Origin: Planctomycetales bacterium
GTDB lineage: Bacteria; 4484-113; JAFGCY01
Direction of reading: 5' to 3'
Length of the DNA: 32,000 bases
Assembly (NCBI GenBank): GCA_022646745.1
Contig: CP060262.1
Coordinates: 1,110,001 to 1,142,000, forward strand
Part shown: positions 2,747-17,891 of the stretch, in pieces
How the letters are laid out: each line of letters starts with the position of its first letter
How positions within the stretch are numbered: position 1 is the first letter of the stretch
Made by a program: the position numbers and the translations under genes
Notes under the pieces: generated by a model
What the model saw: only the letters and a program-made list of their open reading frames with translations
Told to the model about the DNA's origin: nothing
Databases searched by the model: none

Positions 2747-2781
2747 GAGGCAGGGAGCAGGAAGCGGAAAGCAGAAAGCAG
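2747..2781. repeat. Purine-rich degenerate hexamer run (GAGGCAGGGAGCAGGAAGCGGAAAGCAGAAAGCAG) directly after the transporter stop codon, with no complementary arm nearby
   Basis: Direct reading. It uses the same AAGCAG/GAAGCA vocabulary as the elements after the flagellin genes. Confidence 0.5.
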
Positions 2782-3110
2782 ACTCAATCAAATGGTTTGT
2801 AATGCCTGTTGATAAAGTGGATTATTCTATTAGCTGATGCGCTAATTATAAGACTACGGAAGATCACGGGCTATTCCAAACTTGGAAAAGTATGCCTGGC
2901 CAAGTTCGAATTGGATTCGTAATTATTATTAGCGAATAAGCTCGGAATAAGCTCTGTATTGGCTTTATCGCTGACGTGAATAGAAGGAGTAATATGATCC
3001 GGGATCTGCCTCGGTTGATCAGGACGGATCAGGAATGGCTGGGAACTGAGTATTTTCTGGCCGGCATACACTTTCAATTTTGTCCGAAGTGTATGGCCTT
3101 TGGCCTCGTA

Positions 3111-3680
3111 TCAGCTCTTCGGCTTGAGGTGCGCCAGGTCCTTTGGCAGCTCCACTCCCATCTTGTCCAGCGCATAAACCATCAGGTTTGAATTGAAGCT
3201 GCCAAAATCCTCCACCAGCTCGCCGCCCGGCTTGAAGATCCAGACTCGCGGCGTACCCTTCTCGCGCATGTCCATGCTGATTTCAGTCTGCTTCACATCC
3301 GGGTCCCACAGCACCGGGGCCTGCAGGCCGCGCTCGAGGATCGTGGCCTCGGCCTGCTCCTCCACCTTGTCGGCGTTGATGGTGTAGATGTCCACGCCGA
3401 CATCGTACTTCTGCATGTTTCGGTACATCAGTTCCACGAAGGGCAGCTGGCGCTTGCAGTGCGGGCATTCGCTGATCCAGAAGAACAGCAGAAACGGCCG
3501 GCCGCTGTCAGCCAGCTCCTTGAATGTGACATGCTCCTTGCCGCCGACTTCCTTCAGGTCGAACTCATAGGACGGCTTGGCATCCTTCCCATCCTTTCCC
3601 TGCGCAAAGGCAGAACCGGACCAGCCGAGGAGGCCCAGCACAAGCAGCAAGACAGTCAGCTTCAGAACACGCATTTCCAC
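3111..3680 (-). CDS. Secreted TlpA/ResA-like thioredoxin-fold thiol:disulfide oxidoreductase (CPHC active site)
   Basis: Signal peptide MEMRVLKLTVLLLVLGLLGWSGSAFA, motif FFWISECPHCKRQ, and redoxin-like length of 189 aa. It is a paralog of 6014-6565. Confidence 0.8.
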   Translation of the reverse strand: MEMRVLKLTVLLLVLGLLGWSGSAFAQGKDGKDAKPSYEFDLKEVGGKEHVTFKELADSGRPFLLFFWISECPHCKRQLPFVELMYRNMQKYDVGVDIYTINADKVEEQAEATILERGLQAPVLWDPDVKQTEISMDMREKGTPRVWIFKPGGELVEDFGSFNSNLMVYALDKMGVELPKDLAHLKPKS

Positions 3681-3796
3681 TCCGTTAACATTGCCCGCAG
3701 GCCATTATCCATGACGTGGCCGGGGCCTGCAGTATTCATCGCGGCTGTTATGCTCATTGCAGTGCTGCAGGGACGCGGCCAAGGGAGGACTGTGGC

Positions 3797-4567
3797 TTGC
3801 TCGCTTCCAGGTTCATTTACGCCTTTCTCATCATTGAGCTGCTTGTGCTGCTGGGCGGTGACCCCGCGCATTCACAGGACAAGTGGATGGTGGGCAGCCA
3901 GGAACAGGTGCGCGCCTTGAACATGGTGCAGATCGCGCTGACCGCCTACCAGTCGAGCCACGGCAAGTGGCCGAAGAACTGGAAGGAGCTGCGCGAGAGC
4001 GGGATCTGGCAATCCGTGCTGCTCAATGAACAGGGCCAGGCGCTGGACCCGGACAATGATGGACCGCCCAAACTCGGCAGCGGCCTGAACTATCGCGGCG
4101 TTGACAGCGAGGGTCGGGCGGTGCTTGTGGTGCTGGTGCCGCGCGGGGCAGCCGCGCTGCAAAGCGAGGAGGAACGCACCTGGCGGCTGGAACCGCAGCC
4201 GGACTACGCCCAGCGCCTGAAATGGCTGGACAGCCAGGGCTTCACAGCCGCGCGCGGGATCACGCTGGCGGACTACATTGACGACAAGGGGATGCTGGGC
4301 CTGTTTGCGATCTGCGGGGTGATCGAGGAGGGGCTGAAGCTGTACACGCTTGAGAACAGCGGCGGGCCGGAGGAGCTGGACCAGCTGATTGACAGCGGAT
4401 ACTGCCCGGTGGACCGCCAGAGCATCAACCCGCGAACGGGAGCACGCCTGAAGTTCGACGGCAGCCGCGGCGAGCTGAAGCTCAGCTTCGACAAGGACGG
4501 GAAGCTCACCGGAGTCTGGCCGGTGCTGTCCGATGGCAAGGAGCTGAAAGCGCCGGGGGTTTTCTAG
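3797..4567 (+). CDS. Hypothetical exported protein with a degenerate prepilin/pseudopilin-like N-terminus
   Basis: The ORF is open from 3716, but GGGAGGA (3783-3789) lies 7 nt before TTG 3797, which gives the N-terminus LASRFIYA/FLIIELLVLLGG. The following segment QVRALNMVQIALTAYQSSHGKWPKNWKEL resembles the pseudopilin alpha1-C region. The start codon is uncertain (3716 or 3797). Confidence 0.6.
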   Translation: MLASRFIYAFLIIELLVLLGGDPAHSQDKWMVGSQEQVRALNMVQIALTAYQSSHGKWPKNWKELRESGIWQSVLLNEQGQALDPDNDGPPKLGSGLNYRGVDSEGRAVLVVLVPRGAAALQSEEERTWRLEPQPDYAQRLKWLDSQGFTAARGITLADYIDDKGMLGLFAICGVIEEGLKLYTLENSGGPEELDQLIDSGYCPVDRQSINPRTGARLKFDGSRGELKLSFDKDGKLTGVWPVLSDGKELKAPGVF

Positions 4568-4605
4568 CGAGGACCTTGGATCTGGGGTGTAGTGGGTAAT
4601 GAATC

Positions 4606-5247
4606 ATGAATAAAGAAATTAATTATGCGAAGGTCTATAAGCACCTGATAATCGAATTCGCAGATGGATCAAATGCTGAGCTGAAACTTGATCTTCAAAA
4701 CTGTGTTGTTGTATTGGAGATCAATGACGAGATAACCTTGCTAAAGCGATTTCGTCTGTCATTCCTTGGTTGCACAAACGTTGAAGTTGTCATGGAAGGA
4801 GAAGACGAGGATAGACAAACTGACCTGATATATCGCATACAGGAATCTGAGGCGGAGGGTGATCTTAGACACTTCCTGGTTGAATTCAATTCGGAATCTA
4901 CCGTGACAATTTCATGCAAGGACTTCACGCTGTCCAAAATTGGGCCACGAAGGGACTGGAAAGAGCAGGTTCTGAAGTTTGACGTTGACAAAGTCAATCA
5001 GCTAACAAAAGGACTGATAAATCACAAGATTCTGAGCGAGGAGGAAGCCGATAAGTATGCCTATGCATTGCTGACTATTGAGATGCATTGTGAACCTCTT
5101 TTTCTTGTGGATATCCCCAACTTGATCGAATTGTTGTCAAAAGAAAATCTATCAGATGCAGAACGAAAAGACGTTCTGGGCGATATACGGCTGGGCCTTT
5201 CTTCGATCGTGGAGCAGATTGACGATGCAAAGTTACTGGAAGTGTAA
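4606..5247 (+). CDS. Hypothetical protein, an AT-rich orphan gene
   Basis: Clean 213-aa ORF in a block of about 40% GC (hand count 24/60 for 4621-4680, versus 39/60 for 4441-4500). I recognise no motifs. Confidence 0.6.
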   Translation: MNKEINYAKVYKHLIIEFADGSNAELKLDLQNCVVVLEINDEITLLKRFRLSFLGCTNVEVVMEGEDEDRQTDLIYRIQESEAEGDLRHFLVEFNSESTVTISCKDFTLSKIGPRRDWKEQVLKFDVDKVNQLTKGLINHKILSEEEADKYAYALLTIEMHCEPLFLVDIPNLIELLSKENLSDAERKDVLGDIRLGLSSIVEQIDDAKLLEV

Positions 5248-5602
5248 AGCAGATGATGAGCACATACAAGATACAGTTCTTACGCTTTGCCGCTGGCCTG
5301 TTTGCCATCCACGCCCTGTTGGACGCCTGCGGCGACCCCCACCCGGGATGTCCAGCGGCAATCCTATGATGCTCTTCTTCGTGCCTTGGTGACTTGGTGG
5401 TTTCATTTTTGTTGGCCAGCAAGACACAAAGACACCAAGCAGATCGGATAGCGGCACTTGTTTTACGCAACCGGAAGTGGATATGGCGAAGAAGGCGTAT
5501 ATGGAAGTAGGGCGGCGGTAATACCGCCGCCGCGGATGGGGTGTCAGCCCATCCCTCCGTCATGCATGTTGCACGAGTGACCGGCTTGCGCCGGGATACC
5601 GC

Positions 5603-5990
5603 GCCGAGCTTGCGCTCGACCTCCGGAAAGCAATGAGTTGTGAAGAGTGAGCAATGATGGTTTCGCAGGTCGAGGTAACAACAAGCCTTTGTCTGGCTCA
5701 TGGCTCATTCTTCATTGCTCATGATTGGCTCATGCGGAATGTTTCGGCTGCATCCGCCTGCGGCTGGACTGACCTCCTCGCCGAGCTTGCGCTCGACCTC
5801 CGGAAAGCAATGAGTTGTGAAGAGTGAGCAATGATGGATTCGCAGGTCGAGGCAACAACAAGCCTTTGTCAGGCTCATTGCACAATCTTCATTGCTCATG
5901 ATTGGCACATGCAGAATGTTTCGGCTGCATCCGCCTGCGGCTGGGATGCAGAACCCCTGGTCAGTCCTGCCTGCGGCGGGACTGACCTCC
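5603..5990. repeat. Tandem direct repeat with a 177-bp period. Copy 1 is 5603-5779 and copy 2 is 5780-5990, with a 35-nt insertion near its end. Each copy contains an internal GAGCAAT-type hairpin
   Basis: GCCGAGCTTGCGCTCGACCTCCGGAAAGCAATGAGTTGTGAAGAGTGAGCAATGATGG starts at both 5603 and 5780. The copies differ at only a few positions over the first 100 nt or so. Confidence 0.85.
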
Positions 5991-6013
5991 GTGTCATCCT
6001 TACGGATGACCTC

Positions 6014-6565
6014 CTATTTGTCGTCGGGGACGGGGATGTCGAGCAGCTTGAGCACCGCTTCGCTGTAGCCGGCCTTGTAGCCCGTGATAGTGTCGATGAA
6101 CTCGCCGCCCGCCCCGAACACGTAGGTCACCGGCATGCCAAGGTCCTTCAGGCCGTAGGCCTTGTCCGTGCGCCGGCCGTGCATGTCCCACAGCACCGGG
6201 ATTGACAGCCCGGTCTCGGCGATGTAGCTGCGGCAGTCGCGCTCGCGGTCGTCGATGTTGATGCTGACGAGGTACATGTCCAGCTCATGCTCGCGGATCG
6301 AGTCATTGAGCTCCTGCACGTAGGGCATCTGCATCCGGCAAAGCTGGCAGCTGGACAGCCACCACACCAGCACGAAGGGCTTCTTGCTGCGGGCCAGTTC
6401 CTCGAAGCTCAGGCCGCCCGCGTCGTTGACGTAGTCCAGGTCGAAGGCGTAGTACTCCCAGTCCGGGTTGGGCTTGGAGTCATCCTCGCCCTGGGCCAGC
6501 GCGGGCGCAAAGCCGCAGGCCGTGAAGGCCAGCGCCAGCAACATGATCAACATCCTATCTCTCAT
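6014..6565 (-). CDS. TlpA/ResA-like thioredoxin-fold lipoprotein (CQLC active site)
   Basis: Signal/lipobox MLIMLLALAFTAC and motif VWWLSSCQLCRMQMPYV. It aligns by eye with 3111-3680 (YEFDLKEV../YAFDLDYV.., ..GLQAPVLWD/..GLSIPVLWD). Confidence 0.8.
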   Translation of the reverse strand: MRDRMLIMLLALAFTACGFAPALAQGEDDSKPNPDWEYYAFDLDYVNDAGGLSFEELARSKKPFVLVWWLSSCQLCRMQMPYVQELNDSIREHELDMYLVSINIDDRERDCRSYIAETGLSIPVLWDMHGRRTDKAYGLKDLGMPVTYVFGAGGEFIDTITGYKAGYSEAVLKLLDIPVPDDK

Positions 6566-7070
6566 CCGGTACCTCTTCTATATCCAGGCGCCGCGCCATG
6601 CCTTCCATGTCCCGGCATGTCATCAACAGCGCATCTTCCTGTGTGTCAGTGTAATAACGCTTGCGCAGGCCAACCTGCGTGAAGCCGAGCCGCTCGTACA
6701 GGGTTATCGCCGCCTCGTTGCTGACCCTTACCTCCAGCACGATATAGGCGATCCCTTCCTGGATTCCCTGGAAGGCCGTGTACGCAATCAGCTGCTCGGC
6801 GATGCGCCTGCCCCGGTACTCCTGCTTGGTGGCAATAGTGCCGATGTGCGCCTCGTCGTAGATGAACCAGCTGCCGATGTACCCAACCAGCTCGTGCTGA
6901 TCCTTCGTTTCTATGACAAAGAAGCGGGCGTGCCTGTTCGCATCGATGTCGGATTCGTACATCGATCGCTTCCATGGAGTGGGAAAACTGTACTGCTCGA
7001 TCACGAGCAGGGGATCCAGGTCCGCTTCAGCCATCCGCCGGATCCTGAACTGGTCAAAGGCTCCCGCCAT
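6555..7070 (-). CDS. rimI: Ribosomal-protein-alanine N-acetyltransferase (GNAT family, RimI-like)
   Basis: IRRMAEADLDPLLVIEQYSFPTPW ... GTIATKQEYRGRRIAEQLI ... LEVRVSNEAAITLYERLGF ... YYTDTQEDALLM is the typical RimI/GNAT core. It overlaps the downstream thioredoxin gene by 11 nt. Confidence 0.85.
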   Translation of the reverse strand: MAGAFDQFRIRRMAEADLDPLLVIEQYSFPTPWKRSMYESDIDANRHARFFVIETKDQHELVGYIGSWFIYDEAHIGTIATKQEYRGRRIAEQLIAYTAFQGIQEGIAYIVLEVRVSNEAAITLYERLGFTQVGLRKRYYTDTQEDALLMTCRDMEGMARRLDIEEVPDER

Positions 7071-7142
7071 GCGTAAATTATAGGTTGAACCGGGGCCTGA
7101 TCCTCAAGCAGAGATTGACTCGTGCCGATCCACTGAAATAAG

Positions 7143-7853
7143 ATGGAAGCCGTGAAGCTCAGCCTCAACCTGCAGAACTGCGAGATCCCCGCCGGGTGCG
7201 CCAACTTCGGCGAGCTCGTTTCGTACATGGAGGAGCAGCAGATCCCGCAGGATGAGGTGATCACCCGCATCATCATCGACGGCAGCGATGTCAGTTCCGA
7301 GCGTGAGCTGGAGCTGGCCACGGAGCCGCTCAGCGAATTCGAGATCGTTGAGTTCTACTCCGCACGCACGCTTGACCTGGCCCGCCAGAGCATGCAGGAT
7401 GCAACAGAACTGCTGCCGGCGCTGCAGGCGGACCTGCCGAACGTGGCCACGGAGCTGCGCGGCGGCAACATCCAGGACGGGCTCCTGATGTTCGACAAAT
7501 GCCTGGAGATCATCAGCCACTACGTCAGCCTGGTGAATGCGATTGACGGGATCTACCGCCGGATCGACCCCAGTTTCCGCCTGCTGCCGAGTGCAGATGC
7601 GGCGACGGACGAGAACGAGACGGATTTCGATGTGGACAGCCTCAACCCGAACCCGGACAATGAGCTGAAGACCTTCGCCTCGATTGAGAACCTGCGCCAG
7701 AAGCTGATGAGCGTGGAGCAGGCCCAGGCGAACGGGGACAGCCTGCTTTTGGCGGACCTGATCGAGTTCGAGATCCTGCCAATCGTGGGGATCTGGAACA
7801 ACGAACTGCCGGTGCTGAACGGGCGGGTGCAAAGAGAAAACGCAAAAGCCTGA
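7143..7853 (+). CDS. Hypothetical acidic cytoplasmic protein
   Basis: 236-aa ORF with host-like GC3 bias, followed by an intrinsic terminator. I recognise no motifs and there is no obvious SD, so the start is uncertain. Confidence 0.6.
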   Translation: MEAVKLSLNLQNCEIPAGCANFGELVSYMEEQQIPQDEVITRIIIDGSDVSSERELELATEPLSEFEIVEFYSARTLDLARQSMQDATELLPALQADLPNVATELRGGNIQDGLLMFDKCLEIISHYVSLVNAIDGIYRRIDPSFRLLPSADAATDENETDFDVDSLNPNPDNELKTFASIENLRQKLMSVEQAQANGDSLLLADLIEFEILPIVGIWNNELPVLNGRVQRENAKA

Positions 7854-7957
7854 TTCCCCTGCCGTCTCACGCAAGCGCTCGACGGTCTGCGTGACGGCAA
7901 GAAACAAGTTTCGTGCCGCACGCACGAACAGCGCTCTCCCAACAAACATTGGAAGAT

Positions 7958-7984
7958 AAAGCGAGCCCCAGGGCTCGCTTTTTG
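7958..7984 (+). terminator. Rho-independent terminator
   Basis: GCGAGCC(CCAG)GGCTCGC stem followed by TTTTT. Confidence 0.75.
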
Positions 7985-7992
7985 CTTTCTTC

Positions 7993-8426
7993 GAGCAATG
8001 AAGAGTGAGCAATGAGAAGAAGTGGGATGAGGGATGGGGGATGAGGGATGAGCAGAAGCAGAATGAGAAGCAGTTAAGCAATGAGCAATGAAGAGTGAGC
8101 AATGAGCCCATGAGGCAGTTTGCCTGCTTCGTTGCATGGAATTATTTCTGACAACGGGTACTGAATTCGGGTTGTTGAACTCTGACAGTTCTGCATGGCG
8201 AGACAGAGATTGCAGCATTGGCTCATTGCTCACTCTTCATTGCTCATTGCTAACAAGGCGACTGGCAGTCGCCGCTCCAGCGAGCTGAATGCTCGCGCTC
8301 CATCCCCCGTCCCATTGTGCGCAAGCAAGTTGCGCACCTCCGCATCCCACATCCCACATCCCCCATCCCTCATCCCCCATCCCCCATCCCTCATCCCTCA
8401 TCCCTCATCCCTCATCCCCCATCCCG
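7993..8426. repeat. Composite nested palindromic element. GAGCAATGAAGAGTGAGCAATGAG occurs at 7993-8016 and 8084-8107, and its complement at 8221-8244. (GGGATGN)x4 at 8024-8052 faces (CATCCCN)x~12 at 8343-8425. A CAGAAG-type hexamer run lies at 8053-8073
   Basis: Direct reading of both strands. The inner pair encloses a loop of about 110 nt and the outer heptamer arrays are complementary. Confidence 0.8.
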
Positions 8427-8506
8427 CTTTTAGCACCTTGAGTCGGTAAACCCCGGCTTAATTTGCGTAAAGCGGGCAGTTTTTATATCGACCCCACTTT
8501 CAAAAA

Positions 8507-8526
8507 CTTTAGGCCGCGGGTAGATT
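8507..8526 (+). promoter_or_regulatory. Candidate promoter element CTTTAG-N6-GGTAGATT (possible -10 TAGATT) about 96 nt upstream of flagellin 1
   Basis: The same motif with the same spacing occurs upstream of flagellin 3 (14990-15009), and a related TCAAGTT-N6-GAATAGATT occurs upstream of flagellin 2. There is no conserved -35, so the sigma factor is unknown. Confidence 0.3.
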
Positions 8527-8600
8527 CTCCCTGCGGGCAGATTCCCCTGGTTGCCTGGCAACGATGAAGTTGCCAGTGGGGAGCCCGCCAACCCTTTCGC

Positions 8601-8619
8601 ACGTTCAAGGAGGAATGTG
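8601..8619 (+). promoter_or_regulatory. Conserved 19-nt leader ACGTTCAAGGAGGAATGTG containing the Shine-Dalgarno sequence of flagellin 1
   Basis: Identical 19-mer at 11795-11813 and 15076-15094. AAGGAGG lies 8 nt before the ATG. Confidence 0.8.
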
Positions 8620-8621
8620 TA

Positions 8622-11336
8622 ATGAGTGTCACACGTATCTACCAGAACCCGTTGGCTATCAATGCGAACCGGAATCTGAAGATCACCGGAATGAACATCT
8701 CCAAGTCCCTGGAGCGCCTGTCATCCGGTTTGCGTATCAACCGTGCCGCTGACGACGCCGCCGGCCTCTCCATCAGTGAGAAGTTGCGCAGCCAGATCCG
8801 CGGCCTCAACCGCGCCAGCACCAACGCCCTGGACGGCATTTCGCTAATCCAGACCGCGGAAGGTGCACTCAACGAGACGCACTCGATCCTGCAGCGCATG
8901 CGCGAGCTGAGTGTCCAGGCTGCCAACGGCATCTACACCGCCGGTGACCGCCAGGCCATCCAGCAGGAGGTCGGGCAGCTGATCGATGAGATCAACCGCA
9001 TCTCGGACACCACCGAGTTCAACACCAAGACCCTGCTTGACGGAACGCTGGGCGCCCTGATCTCCACCGACGACTTCACCAAGGTCCGTGCGGCCGTGGT
9101 CGGCAACGTCGGCAACGGCGGAAACTTCGTGCTGCGTGCCGCGGCACTCAACACCGGCCAGCTGCAGGTGCAGAAGACCGACGTGTTCTCCACCGTCCAG
9201 CAGGCTGACGCCGTCGGCAAGATCAACTACGCCAAGACCTACCGGGCTGACGTTGACATCGCCACCTCCAGCGTGAGCGGCGTCGGCAAGACCGGCATCT
9301 ACCAGGTCGAGGTGATCAACGATGCCAACGGCTCGACCGCCGTGCAGAGCACCGTGGACGCAACCTTCCGCATCAGCGGCGCCTCCTTCGCGGGTGGCGG
9401 CCTGAGCGTCGGCCGTTCCCTGCAGGCCGAGGAGCTGACCGTCGGCGACAAGATCCTGCTGACCGTCAACACCCAGAGCGGCGTGCAGACCGTGAGCGTC
9501 GTGCTCGGCAGCCTCGGCACCGACATGACCAGCATGGCGGCCCTGATGAGCACCGCGCTCAACAACGGCATTGCCAACGTCTCCAACGTGACATTCAACG
9601 CGAGCGGCCAGTTCAGCATCAACGTCTCGAACGGCGGTTCCTCACTCTCGATCATCAGCACGCAGTTCGTTGACACCGACGGCAGCGGTTCCGACTTCTA
9701 CATCAGTTTCGGTGCCTCCGGCCAGTCCAACAACTTCTACAGTGCGGTGCAGTACAGCTTCTTCAACAACGGCAGCGCCACCTCCGGCAGCCTGACCCGC
9801 ACAGGCGCGAGCGGCGAGTACTTCTCGATCGGCGATGCCAACACCGGTACCGTCGGAATCCGCTTCGACGTGCGCCATGACTTCAGCCAGGTCAGCCTGG
9901 CCGGCGCGACCCAGACCGACACCCTGACCTGGAGCCGCTACGGTGGTGGCAACAGCATCCAGGAGTACGGCGAGGTCTGGCAGAGCGGCCCGGCCGTGAC
10001 GAACGGCACCTTCATGGTCAGCGCGATCTCCGAGCGCACCTATGCGATCTTCGAGTTTGACAACGAGTCATACACCAGCCTGGTGGCAGCCGGAACCGAC
10101 CAGGATGTCGCCCTGCTGACGGCGCGCGGCGCCCGCATGAGCAACCTCAACGGTGACCAGACCTTCTCGATCGCGATGGCCTTCGAGGGCGCGGTCGGCA
10201 CCAACCTGGAGAACATCCACTTCGCGGTGGATGGCATCATGCAAAGCGGCGAGACCGCTACCTTCAACATCAGCACCAACAACGTGCTGACGGCGGACCA
10301 GCTCAACACGCTGGCCAGCCTCAACCGCTTCCAGGAGTTCGGCGTGTTCAACGGCCGCGACAGCGTGGAACTGACCCTCTACCTGCGCGGATCCAGCAAC
10401 ACCACCACAGTCAACCTGACCAAGAACGACACCTTCGAGGACATGGCGGGCAAGATCAGCCTGGCGATGTACAACCCGGACGGATCCGGCATCATCACCA
10501 GCGGCATCATCAACCCACAGCAGATCCCCGACCTGGTGCATGTCAACACGGTCGGCATGGCGAAGGGCACGATGTCCATCACCACCGCGGTGCCGGGAGC
10601 TGAGATCGTGTTCGCCGGTGACGAGAGCATCCTGAAGGCCCTGTCCCTGATCGAGGTGCAGGCCGGCGAGGCTCCGGTGTACAGCATCAACGCCTTCAAC
10701 ATCGAGAAGAACCAGCAGGTCGGCAGCGTGATCGTCAACTCCAACGAGATCAACGGCCTGCTGCCCGGCGTGAAGGTCTTCTTCGACAACACGCTCGGCC
10801 TCAAGCTGGATCCCCAGCCCCCGGTCACGGCCCAGGGCGGCGGTACCAACAACCTGACGAGCTTCGGCTACCAGCAGCCGACCGAGCGCCCGAGCATCTC
10901 ACTGTCCGGCAGCGTGGAGAGCTTCTTCATCCACGTCGCCCCGCGTGACTTCACCCTGCAGATCGGTGCCAACCAGGGCCAGACGATCAACACCTTCCTG
11001 TCCGACATGAGTGCCGAGGCACTCGGCGTGGAGGGCCTGGTGGTCGTCACCAGCGACCTGGCACAGGAGAGCATCAGCATCGTCGACCACGCGATCAGCA
11101 AGGTCAGCTCTGAGCGTTCCCGTCTCGGTGCAATCCAGAACCGCCTGGAAAGCACGATCCGCAACTTGGACGTCAGCGCCGAGAACCTGACCTCCTCCGA
11201 GAGCCGCATCCGCGACGTGGACGTGGCGCTCGAGACGATTGCCAGCACCCGCAACCAGATCCTGCTGCAGGCTGGCGTAGCTGCGATGGCCCAGGCCAAC
11301 CAGCTGCCCAACCAGATGCTGCAGCTGCTGCGCTAG
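8622..11336 (+). CDS. fliC: Giant flagellin paralog 1 (904 aa)
   Basis: N-terminus has LERLSSGLRINRAADDAAGLSISEKLRSQIRGLNRASTNALDGISLIQTAEGAL. C-terminus has SSERSRLGAIQNRLESTIRNLDVSAENLTSSESRIRDVDVALETIASTRNQILLQAGVAAMAQANQLPNQMLQLLR. These are the canonical flagellin D0/D1 signatures. Confidence 0.95.
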   Translation: MSVTRIYQNPLAINANRNLKITGMNISKSLERLSSGLRINRAADDAAGLSISEKLRSQIRGLNRASTNALDGISLIQTAEGALNETHSILQRMRELSVQAANGIYTAGDRQAIQQEVGQLIDEINRISDTTEFNTKTLLDGTLGALISTDDFTKVRAAVVGNVGNGGNFVLRAAALNTGQLQVQKTDVFSTVQQADAVGKINYAKTYRADVDIATSSVSGVGKTGIYQVEVINDANGSTAVQSTVDATFRISGASFAGGGLSVGRSLQAEELTVGDKILLTVNTQSGVQTVSVVLGSLGTDMTSMAALMSTALNNGIANVSNVTFNASGQFSINVSNGGSSLSIISTQFVDTDGSGSDFYISFGASGQSNNFYSAVQYSFFNNGSATSGSLTRTGASGEYFSIGDANTGTVGIRFDVRHDFSQVSLAGATQTDTLTWSRYGGGNSIQEYGEVWQSGPAVTNGTFMVSAISERTYAIFEFDNESYTSLVAAGTDQDVALLTARGARMSNLNGDQTFSIAMAFEGAVGTNLENIHFAVDGIMQSGETATFNISTNNVLTADQLNTLASLNRFQEFGVFNGRDSVELTLYLRGSSNTTTVNLTKNDTFEDMAGKISLAMYNPDGSGIITSGIINPQQIPDLVHVNTVGMAKGTMSITTAVPGAEIVFAGDESILKALSLIEVQAGEAPVYSINAFNIEKNQQVGSVIVNSNEINGLLPGVKVFFDNTLGLKLDPQPPVTAQGGGTNNLTSFGYQQPTERPSISLSGSVESFFIHVAPRDFTLQIGANQGQTINTFLSDMSAEALGVEGLVVVTSDLAQESISIVDHAISKVSSERSRLGAIQNRLESTIRNLDVSAENLTSSESRIRDVDVALETIASTRNQILLQAGVAAMAQANQLPNQMLQLLR

Positions 11337-11423
11337 GCATAAGGCAACCAGCCCAGCCGTACCGGGTCCATCAAGCGGGCCGGGCGGCGGGGATGAGCAT
11401 CGCCGGATTAGGCAAGGGATGGA

Positions 11424-11463
11424 GCCCCCCGGGTGGAAACGCCCGGGGGGCCTTTCAGTTTTC
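11424..11463 (+). terminator. Rho-independent terminator of flagellin 1
   Basis: GCCCCCCGGG(TGGAAACG)CCCGGGGGGC followed by CTTTCAGTTTT. Confidence 0.8.
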
Positions 11464-11661
11464 AGGGACGAGGGACCGGGGATCGGCAGTTGGCAGAATC
11501 AGAATGAGAAGCAGCAGAATGCAATCGTCAGTGAGCTGATTCCTTTACCTGCTTCTGCATCTGCATCTGCTTCTCATCCTGCATCTGATTCTGATTCTAC
11601 TTCTGTTTCTGCTTCTGTTTCTTAATTTTTACCTGACAACTGACCACTGCCAACAGACCAC
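11464..11661. repeat. Post-terminator palindromic element. The purine-rich arm (GGGACC, CAGTTGGCAG, GAATCA/GAAGCA units) spans 11464-11522. The pyrimidine-rich arm has 12 CTGNTT hexamers (11549-11622) and then CTGACAACTGACCACTGCCAAC
   Basis: Direct reading. The arms are imperfect reverse complements in the same unit order. Confidence 0.75.
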
Positions 11662-11703
11662 TTTTCAATGGCTAAATTACCCTGAATATTATTAGTCTCC
11701 TTA

Positions 11704-11723
11704 TCAAGTTCCGGGAATAGATT
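11704..11723 (+). promoter_or_regulatory. Candidate promoter element TCAAGTT-N6-GAATAGATT about 93 nt upstream of flagellin 2
   Basis: Position and the TAGATT core are shared with the elements upstream of flagellins 1 and 3. Confidence 0.25.
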
Positions 11724-11794
11724 ACTGATACTCGTTAGGCTTTGTCAGAGCACCACGGCCTTTAGCAAGCTGTGGCCGGCCATAGCAACCGAGC

Positions 11795-11813
11795 ACGTTC
11801 AAGGAGGAATGTG
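11795..11813 (+). promoter_or_regulatory. Conserved 19-nt SD leader of flagellin 2
   Basis: ACGTTCAAGGAGGAATGTG, identical to 8601-8619. Confidence 0.8.
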
Positions 11814-11815
11814 TA

Positions 11816-14527
11816 ATGAGTGTCACACGTATCTACCAGAACCCGCTGGCAATCAATGCCAACCGGAACCTGAAGATCACCGGAATGAACATCTCCAAGT
11901 CATTGGAGCGCCTGTCTTCCGGATTGCGCATCAACCGTGCCGCTGACGACGCAGCGGGACTGACCATCAGTGAGAAGCTGCGCAGCCAGATCCGCGGCCT
12001 CAACCGCGCCAGCACCAACGCGCTGGACGGCATCTCCCTGATCCAGACGGCGGAGGGCGCCCTCAACGAGACGCACTCGATCCTGCAGCGCATGCGTGAG
12101 CTGAGCGTGCAGGCCGCCAACGGCATCTACACCGCCAACGACCGCCAGGCGATCCAGTCCGAGGTCGGGCAGCTGATCGACGAGATCAACCGCATCTCCG
12201 ACACCACCGAGTTCAACACCAAGACCCTGCTTGACGGTACGCTCGGTGCCCTGATCTCCACCGACGACTTCACCAAGGTCCGCGCGGCGGTGGTCGGCAA
12301 TGTCGGCAACGGCGGCAACTTCGTGCTGCGCGCCGCGGCACTGGACACCGGCCAGCTGCAGGTGCAGAAGACCGACGTGTTCTCCACGGTGCAGACCGGC
12401 GACGCGGTCGGCTCGATCAACTTCCAGAAGACCTACCGCGCCGACGTTGACATTGCCACCGCCGGCGTGAGCGGTGTGGGCCAGACCGGCCTGTACCAGG
12501 TCGAGGTGATCCGCGATGCCAACGGCTCCACCGCCGTGCAGAGCACCGTGGACGCCACCTTCCGCATCAGCGGCGCGTCCTATGCGGGCGGCGGCCTGAG
12601 CCTCGGCCGCTCCCTGCAGGCCGAGGAGCTGACCGTCGGCGACAAGATCCTGCTCACGGTGAACACCCAGAGCGGCGTCGAGACCGTCAGCATCGTGATC
12701 GGCAGCCTCGGCACCGACATGACGAGCCTCGCCGGCCTGATGAGCACCGCTCTCAACAACGGCCTGGCAAACGTCTCGAGCGTGGGCTTCAACGCCGCCG
12801 GCCAGTTCAGCATCGGGGTCTCCAACGGTGGCTCCAGCCTGAGCATCATCAGCACGCAGTTCGTTGACACCGACGGCAGCGGCTCGGACTTCTACATCAG
12901 CTTCGGCTCCAGCGGGCAGTCCAACAGCTTCTACAGCGCGGTGCAGTACAGCTTCTTCAACAACGGCAGTGCGACTTCCGGCAGCCTGGCACGCGCCGGT
13001 GGTGCCAGCATCAGCGGCCAGTACTTCTCGATCGGCGATGCCAACACCGGTACCGTCGGCATCCGGCTCGACGTGCGCTTCGACTTCAGCACGGTCAGCC
13101 TGGCCGGCTCCAACGCGAGCGACACCCTGAAGTGGGAGCGCTTCACCGGCGGCAACAGCCTGCAGGAGTACGGTTCCGTCTGGCAGGAGGGCAGCGCCGT
13201 CACCAACGGCACCTTCCTCGTCAGTGCGATCTCGGAGCGCACATATGCGATCTTCGAGTTCGACAACCAGGCCTACACCAGCCTGACGAGCGGCGGCACC
13301 GACCAGGAGGTCGCACTGCTGACCGCCCGCGGCGCGCGGATGAGCAATGTCAACGGCGACCAGACCTTCTCGATCGCCGTGGCCTTCGAGGGCGCGGTCG
13401 GCACCAACCTGGAGAACATCCACTTCGCGGTGGACGGCATCCTGCAGAGCGGAGAGACGGCGACCTTCAACATCAGCACCAACAACGTGCTGACGGCGGA
13501 CCAGCTCAATACCCTGGCAAGCCTCAACCGCTTCCAGGAGTTCGGCGTGTTCAACGGCCGCGACAGTGTGGAGCTGACCCTCTACCTGCGCGGTTCCTCG
13601 CAGACCACCACCGTCAACCTGACCAAGAACGACACATTCGAGGACATGGCGGGCAAGATCTCGCTGGCGATGTACAACCCGGATGGGACGGGCATCATCA
13701 CGAGCGGCATCATCAACCCGCAGCAGATCCCGGATCTGGTGCACGTGAACACGGTCGGCATGGCGAAGGGCACGATGTCCATCACCACCGCCGTGCCCGG
13801 CGCCGAGGTCGTGTTCGCCGGTGACGAAAGCCTGCTGAAGGCCCTGTCACTGGTGGAGATCCAGGAGGGCGAGGCCCCGGTGTACAGCATCAACGCCTTC
13901 AACATCGAGAAGAACCAGACGGTCGGCTCCACGATCGTGCGGTCCAACGAGATCAACGGCCTGCTGCCCGGTGTGAAGCTGTTCTTCGACAACACGCTCG
14001 GCCTCAAGCTGGATCCCCAGCCCCCGGTCAACACCACCAACAACCTCACGAGCTTCGCGTACCAGCAGCCCAACGAGCGTCCTGACATCTCCCTGTCCGG
14101 CAGCATCGAGAGCTTCTTCGTACACGTCGCCCCGCGTGCCTTCAACCTGCAGATCGGCGCAAACCAGGGCCAGACGATCGACACCTACCTGTCCGACATG
14201 AGTGCGGAAGCACTCGGTGTGGAGGGACTCGTCGTCGTCACCAGTGACCTGGCGCAGGAGAGCATCAGCATCGTCGACCACGCGATCAGCAAGGTCAGCT
14301 CTGAGCGTTCCCGCCTGGGAGCGATCCAGAACCGTCTCGAGAGCACGATCCGCAACCTGGACGTGAGCGCCGAGAACCTGACCTCTTCAGAGAGCCGCAT
14401 CCGTGACGTGGACGTGGCACTGGAGACCATCGCCAGCACGAGGAACCAGATCCTGCTGCAGGCTGGTGTGGCTGCGATGGCCCAGGCCAACCAGCTCCCT
14501 CAGAACATGCTGCAGCTGCTGAGGTAG
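11816..14527 (+). CDS. fliC: Giant flagellin paralog 2 (903 aa)
   Basis: Collinear with paralog 1 over its whole length, with the same D0/D1 termini. Confidence 0.95.
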   Translation: MSVTRIYQNPLAINANRNLKITGMNISKSLERLSSGLRINRAADDAAGLTISEKLRSQIRGLNRASTNALDGISLIQTAEGALNETHSILQRMRELSVQAANGIYTANDRQAIQSEVGQLIDEINRISDTTEFNTKTLLDGTLGALISTDDFTKVRAAVVGNVGNGGNFVLRAAALDTGQLQVQKTDVFSTVQTGDAVGSINFQKTYRADVDIATAGVSGVGQTGLYQVEVIRDANGSTAVQSTVDATFRISGASYAGGGLSLGRSLQAEELTVGDKILLTVNTQSGVETVSIVIGSLGTDMTSLAGLMSTALNNGLANVSSVGFNAAGQFSIGVSNGGSSLSIISTQFVDTDGSGSDFYISFGSSGQSNSFYSAVQYSFFNNGSATSGSLARAGGASISGQYFSIGDANTGTVGIRLDVRFDFSTVSLAGSNASDTLKWERFTGGNSLQEYGSVWQEGSAVTNGTFLVSAISERTYAIFEFDNQAYTSLTSGGTDQEVALLTARGARMSNVNGDQTFSIAVAFEGAVGTNLENIHFAVDGILQSGETATFNISTNNVLTADQLNTLASLNRFQEFGVFNGRDSVELTLYLRGSSQTTTVNLTKNDTFEDMAGKISLAMYNPDGTGIITSGIINPQQIPDLVHVNTVGMAKGTMSITTAVPGAEVVFAGDESLLKALSLVEIQEGEAPVYSINAFNIEKNQTVGSTIVRSNEINGLLPGVKLFFDNTLGLKLDPQPPVNTTNNLTSFAYQQPNERPDISLSGSIESFFVHVAPRAFNLQIGANQGQTIDTYLSDMSAEALGVEGLVVVTSDLAQESISIVDHAISKVSSERSRLGAIQNRLESTIRNLDVSAENLTSSESRIRDVDVALETIASTRNQILLQAGVAAMAQANQLPQNMLQLLR

Positions 14528-14573: not shown

Positions 14574-14603
14574 GCCCCCGGGCCAGTGGCCCGGGGGCTT
14601 TTT
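14574..14603 (+). terminator. Rho-independent terminator of flagellin 2
   Basis: GCCCCCGGGCC(AGT)GGCCCGGGGGC followed by TTTTT. Confidence 0.85.
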
Positions 14604-14609
14604 AATAAT

Positions 14610-14757
14610 CAGTTGGCAGTGGGCAGTGGGGAGTATCAGAATGAGAATGAGAAACAGAAGCAGCAGAAGAGGGTAAACAGTTGTAAGTTTCCTGACCTGC
14701 TTCTCATTCTGATTCTGATTCTGAGCCTGACCACTGATTTCTGACAACTGGCCACTG
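14610..14757. repeat. Post-terminator palindromic element. The left arm CAGTTGGCAGTGGGCAGTGGGGAGTATCAGAATGAGAATGAGAAACAGAAGCAGCAGAAG spans 14610-14669. The right arm CTGCTTCTCATTCTGATTCTGATTCTGAGCCTGACCACTGATTTCTGACAACTGGCCACTG spans 14697-14757
   Basis: The reverse complement of the left arm aligns by eye with the right arm in the same unit order. The loop is about 27 nt. Confidence 0.8.
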
Positions 14758-15009: not shown

Positions 15010-15075
15010 TTTCCCGCCGGACAGCAGGACCAAGTGTCAGAAATGGCAGGTGACGGCTGGCCGAGCATCCCGCCT

Positions 15076-15094
15076 ACGTTCAAGGAGGAATGTG
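15076..15094 (+). promoter_or_regulatory. Conserved 19-nt SD leader of flagellin 3
   Basis: ACGTTCAAGGAGGAATGTG, identical to 8601-8619. Confidence 0.8.
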
Positions 15095-15096
15095 GC

Positions 15097-17820
15097 ATGA
15101 GTGTTTCTCGTATATATCAGAACCCGTTGGCAATCAACGCCAACCGTAACCTCAAGATCACGGGGATGAACATCTCCAAGTCCCTGGAAAGACTGTCCAG
15201 TGGTCTGAGGATCAACCGTGCCGCAGATGACGCCGCCGGCCTCTCCATCAGTGAGAAGTTGCGCAGCCAGATCCGCGGCCTCAACCGCGCCAGCACCAAC
15301 GCCCTGGACGGCATCAGCCTGATCCAGACCGCGGAAGGTGCGCTCAACGAGACCCACAGCATCCTGCAGCGCATGCGTGAGCTGTCCGTGCAGGCCGCCA
15401 ACGGCATCTACACCGCCGGCGACCGCATCGCGATCCAGCAGGAAGTCAGCCAGCTCGTGGGGGAAATCAACCGCATCTCCGACACCACGGAGTTCAACAC
15501 CAAGACCCTGCTCGACGGGACGCTCGGCGCCCTGATCTCGACTGACGACTTCAGCCGGATCAGCGCGGCCGTGACCGGCAACGTCGGCAAGGGTGGCAAC
15601 TTCGTGCTGAAGGCCGCCGCGCTGACAACCGGCAACCTGCAGGTGCAGAAGTCGGACGTGTTCTCCACGGTGCAGCAGGCGGACGCCGTCGGCCGGATCA
15701 ACTCCGCGCTGACCTTCCGCGCGGATGCGGAGATCGCCACCGCCAGCACAAACGGCGTCGGGCATACCGGCATCTACCAGGTCGAGGTGCTGAATGACAG
15801 TTTCGGCAGCGTGGCCGTGCAGAGCACCGGTCCCGGCACCTTCCGCATCAGCGGTGCCTCGATCAGCGGCGGCGCCCTGAGCATCGGCCGCAACCTGCAG
15901 GCGGAGGAGCTGACCGTCGGCGACAAGATCCTGCTGACAGTCAACACCCAGAGCGGCGTGAGCACGGTCAGCATCGTGCTCGGCAGCCTCGGCACAAACA
16001 TGACGAGCCTGGCCGGACTGATGAGCAACGCGCTGAACGGCGGCTTTGCCAACGTCTCGAACGTGACCTTCAACGCCAGCGGACAGTTCAGCATCAACGT
16101 CTCCAACGGCGGCTCGACCCTGTCCATCATCAGCTCCAAGTTCGTTGACACAGATGGCAGCGGCTCGGACTTCTACATCAGCTTCGGCAGCGCCGGTGGT
16201 TCGAACACCTTCTACAGTTCGGTGCAGTACAGCTTCTTCAACAACGGCAGCGCCACCTCCGGCAGCCTGTCCCGCGGCGGCGGTGCCAGCATCAGCGGCC
16301 ACTTCTTCTCGATCGGCGATGCCAACACGGGCACGATCGGCATCCGCTTCGACACCCGCTATGACTTCAGCCAGGTCAGCCTCGCCAACACGACGGCGAC
16401 CGATACCATCAACTGGAGCCGCTGGGACGGTGGCAACAGCATCCAGGAGTACGGCAAGGTCTGGCAGGATGGACCGGCCGTTACCAACGGCACCTTCATC
16501 GTGTCCAGTGCCGGTGCCCGCACATATGCAATCTACGAATTCGACAACCAGGCATACACTGACCTCGTCGCAGGCGGCGTGGACCAGGACATCGCCTTCA
16601 AGACGGCCCGCGGCGACCGGCAGGTCGACATCAACGGCGACAACCTGTTCTCGATCGGCGTGGCCTTCGAGGGCGCGGTCGGCAGCGACCTGGAGAACAT
16701 CCACTTCGCGCTGGACGGCATCATGCAGGTCGGTGAGCAGGCCACCTTCAACATCAGCACCAACAACGTGCTGACGGCGGACCAGCTCAATACCCTGGCA
16801 AGCCTCAACCGCTTCCAGGAGTTCGGCGTGTTCAACGGCCGCGACAGCGTGGAGCTGACGCTCTTCCTGCGCGGGTCCAGCGAGTCCACCACGATCAACC
16901 TGACCAAGAATGACAGCTTCGAGGACATGGCCGGCAAGATCAGCCTGGCGATGTACAACACCGACGGCAGCGGCATCATCAAGAGCGGCATCATCAACCC
17001 GCAGCAGGTGCCGGACCTGGTGCACGTGAACACGATCGGCATGGCGAAGGGCACGATGTCCATCACCACGGCGGTACCGGGTGCCGAAGTGGTGTTCGCC
17101 GGTGACGAAAGCATCCTGAAGGCCCTGTCCCTGATCGAGATCGAGGAGGGCACGGCCCCCGTCTACAGCATCAGCGCCTTCAACATCGAGAAGAACGCGG
17201 AGGTCGGCAAGGTGATCGTCAACTCCAACGAGATCAACGGCCTGCTGCCCGGCGTGAAGCTGTTCTTCGACAACACACTCGGCCTCAAGCTGGATGCCCA
17301 GCCGCCGACCAGCATCGCCGGCGGCGGCACGAACGGCATGATCAGCTTCGGCTACCAGGCCCCGACGGAGCGCCCGACGATCTCGCTCGGTGGCAACATC
17401 GAAAGCTTCTTCGTCCATGTCGCGCCGCGTGACTTCAGCCTGCAGATCGGTGCCAACCAGGGCCAGACGATCGACACCTTCATCGCCGACATGAGTGCCC
17501 AGGCACTCGGCGTGGAGGGCCTGGTGGTGGTCACGAGTGACCTCGCCCAGGAGGCGATCAGCATCGTTGACAATGCGATCAACACGGTCAGCAGCCAGCG
17601 CTCCAGGCTGGGTGCCCTGCAGAACCGACTGGAAAGCACGATCCGCAACCTGGATGTCAGCGCCGAGAACCTGACCTCATCCGAGAGCCGCATCCGCGAC
17701 GTGGACGTGGCCCTCGAGACGATCGCCTCGACCCGCAACCAGATCCTGCTGCAGGCAGGTGTGGCGGCGATGGCCCAGGCCAACCAGATGCCGCAGCAGA
17801 TGCTGCAGCTGCTGGGCTAA
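15097..17820 (+). CDS. fliC: Giant flagellin paralog 3 (907 aa), the most diverged copy
   Basis: The ORF is open from 15034. Homology to paralogs 1 and 2 (MSVSRIYQNPLAINANRNLK) and the conserved SD leader place the start at ATG 15097. Confidence 0.93.
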   Translation: MSVSRIYQNPLAINANRNLKITGMNISKSLERLSSGLRINRAADDAAGLSISEKLRSQIRGLNRASTNALDGISLIQTAEGALNETHSILQRMRELSVQAANGIYTAGDRIAIQQEVSQLVGEINRISDTTEFNTKTLLDGTLGALISTDDFSRISAAVTGNVGKGGNFVLKAAALTTGNLQVQKSDVFSTVQQADAVGRINSALTFRADAEIATASTNGVGHTGIYQVEVLNDSFGSVAVQSTGPGTFRISGASISGGALSIGRNLQAEELTVGDKILLTVNTQSGVSTVSIVLGSLGTNMTSLAGLMSNALNGGFANVSNVTFNASGQFSINVSNGGSTLSIISSKFVDTDGSGSDFYISFGSAGGSNTFYSSVQYSFFNNGSATSGSLSRGGGASISGHFFSIGDANTGTIGIRFDTRYDFSQVSLANTTATDTINWSRWDGGNSIQEYGKVWQDGPAVTNGTFIVSSAGARTYAIYEFDNQAYTDLVAGGVDQDIAFKTARGDRQVDINGDNLFSIGVAFEGAVGSDLENIHFALDGIMQVGEQATFNISTNNVLTADQLNTLASLNRFQEFGVFNGRDSVELTLFLRGSSESTTINLTKNDSFEDMAGKISLAMYNTDGSGIIKSGIINPQQVPDLVHVNTIGMAKGTMSITTAVPGAEVVFAGDESILKALSLIEIEEGTAPVYSISAFNIEKNAEVGKVIVNSNEINGLLPGVKLFFDNTLGLKLDAQPPTSIAGGGTNGMISFGYQAPTERPTISLGGNIESFFVHVAPRDFSLQIGANQGQTIDTFIADMSAQALGVEGLVVVTSDLAQEAISIVDNAINTVSSQRSRLGALQNRLESTIRNLDVSAENLTSSESRIRDVDVALETIASTRNQILLQAGVAAMAQANQMPQQMLQLLG

Positions 17821-17851: not shown

Positions 17852-17891
17852 GCCTCCTCCGGCCGGATGGTCCGGGGGAGGCCGCTTTTTT
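17852..17891 (+). terminator. Rho-independent terminator of flagellin 3
   Basis: GCCTCCTCCGG(CCGGATGGT)CCGGGGGAGGC followed by CGCTTTTTT. Confidence 0.8.

Follow-up and report, generated by a model that had tools for sequence, protein, structure and literature searches.

Three tandem large flagellins of an uncultured lineage with predicted outer domains ahead of the D1 beta-hairpin

Introduction

A 32,000-nucleotide stretch of DNA from Planctomycetales bacterium (assembly GCA_022646745.1, contig CP060262.1, positions 1,110,001 to 1,142,000 of the forward strand), here called the window, contains three tandem genes for large flagellins. In the first of these, paralog 1, to which all residue numbers refer unless stated otherwise, an initial annotation placed an insert of about 630 residues between the N-terminal helices of domain D1 and the D1 beta-hairpin, and presented the site as a departure from the 'canonical' position behind the hairpin. 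The locus raises the question of where the outer domains leave the flagellin core, and whether the point of exit is peculiar to these proteins. The preferred answer to the first part, with a probability of about 0.85, is that the genes encode three separately terminated filament flagellins whose outer domains are nested between helix ND1b and the D1 hairpin.

Position of the insert in the flagellin core

The coordinates first given for paralog 1 were all exact when the translation was rechecked. The N-terminal core ends in TEFNTKTLLDGT (residues 131-142), LQIGANQGQTINTFLSDMSAEALGV spans residues 779-803 and IVDHAISKVSSERSRLGAIQNRL residues 820-842. The insert, first delimited as 9048-10931 (residues 143-770), is about 634 residues long when taken in full, from residue 143 to 776. 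That it follows the ND1 helices and precedes the D1 beta-hairpin is borne out by alignments with flagellins of known structure and with Salmonella FliC, and by an AlphaFold2 (AF2) model. All three paralogs have the same topology (Table 1).

The clearest alignment is with the 270-residue flagellin of Roseburia hominis (9HPZ), in which residues 7-143 pair with 4-140, and residues 778-903 pair without a gap with 144-269 (E = 1.8e-27). The two blocks abut at 140/144 of 9HPZ, so that a minimal flagellin accommodates the entire insert at one point of its chain. In the Kurthia flagellin (6T17) residues 5-142 correspond to 2-141 and residues 776-903 to 146-275. The minimal flagellins, which include these two and spirochaete FlaB, have no outer domains and are collinear with the protein without gaps once the insert is removed; the N-terminal block is 58-64% identical to theirs, the value for the R. 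hominis filament flagellin being 64%.

Salmonella FliC and the Hag proteins of B. subtilis and B. amyloliquefaciens (1UCU, 5WJT, 8JMV) share the homologous D0/D1 core, including the hairpin and the ALG motif. The N-terminal core aligns to FliC 5 to about 140, the hairpin segment 777-803 aligns to FliC LTIQVGANDGETIDIDLKQINSQTLGL, and the insert-excised protein is collinear with FliC, FTLQIGANQGQTINTFLSDMSAEALGVEGL pairing with LTIQVGANDGETIDIDLKQINSQTLGLDTL and the FliC domains D2/D3 falling afterwards. The FliC sequence aligned is that of P06179. In 8JMV residues 775-805 pair with 141-171 and the remaining C-terminus with 227-327, so that the variable stretch of 8JMV itself lies after the hairpin. 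Thus D2/D3 of FliC and the approximately 55 residues of 8JMV sit behind the hairpin and ALG, whereas the present protein has only a 16-residue linker (residues 804-819) at that site, which is essentially empty, as first described.

The full-length AF2 model, built with 57 homologues (mean predicted local distance difference test score, pLDDT, 80.8; predicted template modelling score 0.73), has N-terminal helices at 10-34, 46-101 and 107-131 and beta-rich domains over 140-774. These are followed by strands 777-780 and 788-791, a short helix 798-801 and a long helix 811-903. In about 90 homologues of 523 to 1143 residues, the QIGA motif stands a constant 52 residues ahead of RxxLGAxQNR. This spacing equals that of minimal flagellins and holds also in proteins that match the query in the core only. 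By homology and in the predicted structure, LQIGAN...ALGV is the D1 beta-hairpin, contiguous with CD1.

In the same model LLDG is immediately followed by short strands (140-142, 145-149 and 155-159), and one flagellin of the survey described below, from Ureibacillus thermophilus, has hairpin-like motifs flanking its insert on both sides. On these grounds LQIGAN...ALGV could be a relic or duplicate, the real hairpin being formed by the strands of 140-160 and the insert occupying the ordinary post-hairpin position. Such an arrangement is most improbable. Residues 143-175 align to the hairpin of no short flagellin, whereas residues 776-805 do so without gaps and with high posterior probability, and FliC gives the same result. 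The constant spacing, shared with minimal flagellins, points the same way, and residues 143-190 align instead with the start of the outer domains in the flagellin of Geovibrio thiophilus, 9AU6.

The initial annotation had also proposed that Pfam Flagellin_N (PF00669) would give a split hit flanking the insert. The hit is contiguous, residues 8-142 matching profile positions 3-137. Because PF00669 (139 positions) stops at LLDG, this comparison cannot discriminate, and neither supports nor refutes the topology; full-length NCBIfam models, PDB flagellin sequences and FliC were used in its place.

Identity of the proteins

In all three paralogs Flagellin_N scores 146-152 bits (cut-off 26.6; 151 bits in paralog 1). 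Flagellin_C (PF00700) scores 84-91 bits (cut-off 23) and is covered over positions 1-86 of 86, with 84 bits over residues 818-903 in paralog 1. The NCBIfam flagellin models score 190-277 bits, the Hag-type model being the highest (277 bits, paralog 1). The paralogs are 89-98% identical in their cores and 78-88% in their inserts. They differ most at residues ~151-250 and ~401-550, and residues 551-650 are 88-98% identical.

A different identity is suggested by the names of three homologues (P0050, P0075 and P0082), which the Joint Genome Institute calls 'flagellin-like hook-associated protein FlgL'. FlgL models match at E = 1e-25, and an AF2 model of the insert alone gives weak, non-significant Foldseek matches to FliD, FlgL and FlgK chains (E 0.1-1.5). 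It is nevertheless very unlikely that, instead of filament flagellins, these are axial proteins of the hook-filament junction or cap type (FlgL/HAP3-like). The FlgL score of 91 bits is under its cut-off of 127, in contrast to the flagellin scores; the N-terminal core has the identity to the R. hominis filament flagellin given above; Flagellin_C is covered end to end. Moreover, a tandem of three near-identical copies is a typical flagellin arrangement, and the closest structure, 9AU6, is a filament subunit seen by electron cryo-microscopy (PMC11532411).

The paralogs also fall short of the 'giant flagellins' of Thomson et al. (2018; PMC6248924), which exceed 1000 residues. Those Oceanospirillales proteins likewise have large outer-domain inserts with internal duplication and are expected to form thick filaments. 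They differ in being proteobacterial and in having unrelated inserts (DE/DX regions).

Relation to the Geovibrio thiophilus flagellin

The best PDB match of paralog 1, by sequence (E = 1.5e-77) as well as by fold, is 9AU6. In the alignment 9AU6 has TEFNTKKLLNG at ~131-141 and MQIGANEGQTI...LGI at ~670-697 of its 793 residues, and therefore its outer domains also precede the hairpin. The full-length Foldseek match has E = 8e-43 and template modelling (TM) scores of 0.51/0.58; the flagellins ranked next have no better than E = 4e-14 and TM 0.22, i.e. the core alone. With the insert-only model, 9AU6 is the sole significant PDB match (E = 6.9e-11). The parts of the insert nearest the core (143 to ~225 and ~640-776) are recognisably similar in sequence to the corresponding parts of 9AU6.

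The G. thiophilus flagellin has four beta-rich outer domains, D2-D5, forming outer-domain cluster #41 (Fields et al. 2024; PMC11532411). Its D2 fold is reported to occur mainly in hook-associated proteins, D4 to be related to FliD D2 and D5 to be a duplication of D4; the surface is described as strongly acidic. Multi-domain, beta-rich outer domains with a duplicated unit are common to G. thiophilus and the present locus. The G. thiophilus genome has three similar flagellins, two of them close together, compared with three tandem paralogs here. The acid excess is weaker here, D+E to K+R being 1.8:1 against about 3:1 reported for G. thiophilus, both being acidic. The proteins also differ in size (793 against 903-907 residues) and in lineage, 9AU6 belonging to the Deferribacteres and the present proteins to an uncultured lineage.

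Several points weigh against the reading of the locus as three filament flagellins with outer domains ahead of the hairpin. The assembly of the three proteins into filaments is predicted from the genes alone, and the packing of the hairpin on the D1 helices from homology and predicted secondary structure. The flanking genes scanned in the window (an amino-acid permease, two AhpC/TSA-like proteins, a NosD/beta-helix protein, a DUF6754 protein, a polyprenyl synthetase and ResB) include no other flagellar gene. The insert alone has no sequence match in the PDB at E <= 10, and its rigid-body TM scores to 9AU6 are low (0.20/0.17); the insert-only model behind these scores was built from 15 sequences, with a pLDDT of 71 against 81 for the full-length model and poor ends, which makes them weak evidence. 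The makeup of the comparative sample, described below, is a further such point.

The low rigid-body scores imply that the outer domains are related to those of 9AU6 by individual domain folds and not as one rigid unit. Clustering in PMC11532411 requires at least 30% identity of the trimmed outer domain, or rigid-body scores TM1 and TM2 above 0.5 with an alignment length above 0.8. The insert has no phmmer-detectable similarity to 9AU6, and the TM scores of 0.20/0.17 come from Foldseek, not USalign, on a model with ends of low confidence; the protein probably belongs to a cluster separate from #41, linked to it via individual domains. As modelled, the outer domains are fold-level relatives of G. 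thiophilus D2-D5.

Nature of the insert

Counting confirmed that the insert is free of cysteine, rich in glycine (11.0%), serine (10.7%), threonine (9.4%) and asparagine (7.5%), and without HExxH. It is net acidic, with 55 D+E and 30 K+R. Two segments had been likened to the flagellin IN motif. Pfam Flagellin_IN (PF07196) gives no match at E <= 10, either with the insert or with the segments separately, and the likeness was not upheld. The segments belong to two repeat units, residues 264-315 and 567-618, which are homologous to each other (hhalign probability 90%, E = 1.6e-6, 51 columns), each being a strand-strand-helix in the AF2 model. By analogy, they would fit the duplicated FliD-like domains reported for G. 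thiophilus.

The complete insert defines a small family, with 42 representatives at E <= 1e-3 in a library of 1.84 billion clusters at 50% identity. A word-indexed search found about 100 full-length homologues, all from metagenomes or metagenome-assembled genomes (MAGs), and members P0079, P0080 and P0082 are 1129-1143 residues long. The most widely matched part in the library is the module at residues ~560-732, the first ~90 residues of which fall within 551-650, the best-conserved stretch among the paralogs. Large flagellins of Synergistaceae, Thermodesulfobacteriota and Rifleibacterium are matched by the insert profile only at positions 418-590 (E 6e-9 to 4e-20). Single-sequence and profile searches of the fetched loci with the insert likewise returned only the close family and this module.

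Strong conservation of residues ~560-732 across phyla and between paralogs might indicate that a specific biochemical function, as an enzyme or a specific adhesin, accounts for the size and conservation of the outer domains. Enzymatic flagellins, the flagellinolysins, use the same slot, and a negative surface has been proposed to aid mineral adhesion in G. thiophilus (PMC11532411), the present insert being net acidic. This explanation is unlikely, if less so than an axial-protein identity. In addition to lacking HExxH, the insert contains no Pfam or NCBIfam enzyme or binding domain at E <= 10, its only significant structural relative is another flagellin, and packing constraints within the filament explain the conservation of a core-proximal domain equally well.

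How common is the pre-hairpin slot?

In the flagellinolysin model of NCBIfam (NF033876; Eckhard et al. 2017, PMC5595980), positions 1-34 cover the end of ND1b, and positions 326-384 the hairpin and the start of CD1. Residues 113-146 match positions 1-34 and residues 775-835 match positions 326-384 of 384, so that the flagellinolysin peptidase, a foreign domain, occupies the same pre-hairpin slot. The present proteins are not flagellinolysins, as had been concluded at first: they have neither HExxH nor a peptidase domain, and NF033876 scores 72 bits against a cut-off of 205, matching the flanking core parts only. HExxH was found neither in the proteins of the window nor in the flagellin open reading frames (ORFs) of the 80 loci described next.

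These 80 loci were taken from GTDB species representatives, fetched with core peptide patterns, and every flagellin ORF in them was classified. A first classifier based on regular expressions left 24 unclear, most of which were settled by reading the sequences and relaxing a motif. The insert precedes the hairpin in 46 ORFs and follows it in 7, while 24 ORFs are without an outer domain, 8 stayed unclear and a single ORF has motifs on either side; because the patterns came from this family's core, Bacillota-like cores are over-represented, and the counts do not amount to a census. Domain boundaries from phmmer suggested several of the 8 unclear ORFs as pre-hairpin. Among the pre-hairpin ORFs are those of Lachnospiraceae ([Lactobacillus] rogosae), Paenibacillus, Cohnella, Ureibacillus, Geobacillus, Synergistaceae, Aminobacteriaceae and Fervidobacterium, with inserts unrelated in sequence. 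The post-hairpin group is also from Bacillota, e.g. Halobacillus, Lederbergia and Carbobacillus.

Within the sampled core space the pre-hairpin slot is the common one. The topology is not unusual, since 9AU6, a solved structure, and NF033876, a model curated by NCBIfam, already have it, and its description as a departure from the 'canonical' position is not supported; the post-hairpin site is 'canonical' only from the viewpoint of Salmonella and B. subtilis. Outer domains have a general second point of entry in the pre-hairpin slot, which is widely used outside Proteobacteria and so is not peculiar to this locus.

Some of the fetched loci have features of their own. A Thermodesulfobacteriota MAG has three tandem flagellin ORFs (2091, 5998 and 9963) of 939-949 residues with pre-hairpin inserts. 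In Candidatus Rifleibacterium amylolyticum, too, large flagellins with pre-hairpin inserts form a tandem of three (ORFs at 2, 5968 and 8432); those at 2 and 8432 match the module 560-732 near the N-terminal rather than the C-terminal end of the insert, which suggests that outer-domain modules are shuffled. The U. thermophilus ORF (4981, 496 residues), the only surveyed flagellin with hairpin-like motifs in both positions, has one directly behind LLxG and another 52 residues ahead of the CD1 motif, and may represent a hairpin duplication or inserts in both slots.

The nearest genome to the present one is the unclassified MAG bacterium AC1.30 (95% identity); farther relatives (53-61%) are labelled uncultured Planctomycetales. 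The AC1.30 locus (JAWLAZ010000001.1) has at least four tandem flagellin copies at 2690-13645, two of them intact. One copy is split between different frames, its ORFs 9511 and 10592 matching insert residues 248-387 and 542-696, and another, starting at 12549, is cut off by the end of the locus. No runs of N interrupt the sequence. The fragmented copy could be a pseudogene, or misassembly of repeated sequence could have produced it.

Arrangement of the genes and their upstream regions

The features of the locus are collected in Table 1. The mechanical ORF of paralog 3 is 15034-17820, from a GTG at 15034. Paralogs 1 and 2 have nothing that corresponds to its first 21 codons; homology to them begins at the ATG at 15097. 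This ATG, preceded by the conserved leader described below, is the likely true start.

Table 1. Features of the flagellin locus, in coordinates of the window
Feature	Position	Strand	Size or residues	Remarks
Flagellin paralog 1	8622..11336	+	904 aa	Pfam, NCBIfam, AF2
N-terminal core of paralog 1	8622..9047	+	residues 1-142	helices ND0, ND1a, ND1b, ending TEFNTKTLLDGT; AF2, alignments
Outer-domain insert of paralog 1	9048..10949	+	residues 143-776	beta-rich, no Cys, net acidic
Internal repeat unit a	9411..9566	+	residues 264-315	first 'IN-like' segment; AF2 strands 277-284 and 287-294, helix 302-315
Most conserved insert module	10299..10817	+	residues ~560-732	common to large flagellins of other phyla
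Internal repeat unit b	10320..10475	+	residues 567-618	second 'IN-like' segment; AF2 strands 581-588 and 594-600, helix 605-616
D1 beta-hairpin and short helix	10950..11030	+	residues 777-803	FTLQIGANQGQTINTFLSDMSAEALGV; AF2, alignments
Linker at the Salmonella/Hag-type variable site	11031..11078	+	16 residues, 804-819	gapless 9HPZ alignment here
C-terminal D1/D0 helix	11052..11333	+	residues 811-904	AF2 helix 811-903, Pfam Flagellin_C
Terminator-like hairpin 3' of paralog 1	11424..11451	+		strong; 12-bp stem, 11 GC pairs, then T-rich tail
Flagellin paralog 2	11816..14527	+	903 aa	insert 12242-14140, hairpin 14141-14221
Terminator-like hairpin 3' of paralog 2	14574..14598	+		strong
Flagellin paralog 3	15097..17820	+	907 aa from ATG 15097	insert 15523-17433, hairpin 17434-17514
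Terminator-like hairpin 3' of paralog 3	17868..17884	+		weaker

The 19 nucleotides preceding the start codon (ACGTTCAAGGAGGAATGTG) are identical in the three paralogs (8603-8621, 11797-11815 and 15078-15096), and a CTTTA...(G/A)TAGATT block is also conserved about 85-110 nucleotides upstream of each start codon. These blocks may represent a promoter and a leader whose Shine-Dalgarno sequence contains AGGA. The putative leader may resemble those of CsrA-regulated flagellins.

The intergenic region upstream of each gene contains a short-period tandem repeat, with about 12 copies of CATCCCY before paralog 1 (8343-8425), about 12 of CTGCTT before paralog 2 (11549-11622) and about 5 of CTGATT before paralog 3 (14697-14724). 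Further arrays lie at 8024-8052, 8077-8107 and 8216-8251. The arrays could shift promoter spacing via slipped-strand mispairing, or be plain low-complexity DNA. Long minus-strand ORFs at 7104-8233, upstream of paralog 1, overlap simple repeats, have low-complexity translations rich in Cys, Ser, His and Leu, and are probably not genes.

Downstream of the cluster, on the opposite strand, are the genes for the NosD/right-handed beta-helix protein (585 aa; 18502-20259) and the DUF6754 protein (562 aa, 384 bits; 22615-24303). A link of either gene to the flagellins is not evident.

Proposed architecture and its implications

In the architecture proposed for these flagellins, to which homology and structure prediction both point, the D0/D1 core is a standard one. 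The chain leaves D1 at LLDG (residue 142), immediately behind ND1b, forms about 634 residues of beta-rich outer domains and returns to D1 at the first hairpin strand (residue 777), from where the 16-residue linker passes directly into the CD1/CD0 helix, as it does in minimal flagellins. Along such a path, D1 is composed of ND1a and ND1b from the N-terminal side of the insert, and of the hairpin and CD1 from its C-terminal side. The outer domains would surround the core and make the filament thicker, and its surface would be acidic and antigenically variable. The paralogs would differ mainly in their outer domains, the distal parts of the insert varying between them. A thick filament with an acidic surface is suggested by analogy with 9AU6 and with the thick filaments of large flagellins (PMC6248924).

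An explicit description of the pre-hairpin insertion site was not found in the literature searched, the coverage of which was incomplete. A 2024 structural survey defined outer domains by removing a constant 163 residues from the N-terminus and 100 from the C-terminus. A paper on fusion design in a B. cereus flagellin names two natural attachment sites, both after the hairpin, and the flagellinolysin (PMC5595980) and giant-flagellin (PMC6248924) papers speak only of 'the hypervariable region' or a 'central insert'. The site seems under-described, though it is implicit in a deposited structure and a curated profile hidden Markov model. Fixed-residue trimming and post-hairpin-only fusion designs mis-handle flagellins with pre-hairpin inserts; with fixed trimming, about 20 N-terminal residues of the outer domain are lost, and its C-terminal end keeps the hairpin. 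A bolder proposal, that the slot between ND1b and the hairpin is the main site of outer-domain acquisition outside Proteobacteria and defines a class with the hairpin in the C-terminal half of D1, is doubtful at present. If it were true, the outer-domain boundaries of existing surveys would be misplaced for the class, and fusion engineering would gain a third natural site.

The result is useful but incremental rather than surprising, because 9AU6 and the NCBIfam model already embody the topology. The annotation of the locus is settled as three complete large flagellins with Geovibrio-like outer domains, and not fusions, flagellinolysins or FlgL. The locus adds a member from an uncultured lineage to the known flagellins with large outer domains, among which the point of outer-domain insertion is not fixed. 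In this lineage, three or more paralogs that differ in their surfaces may form a thick filament.

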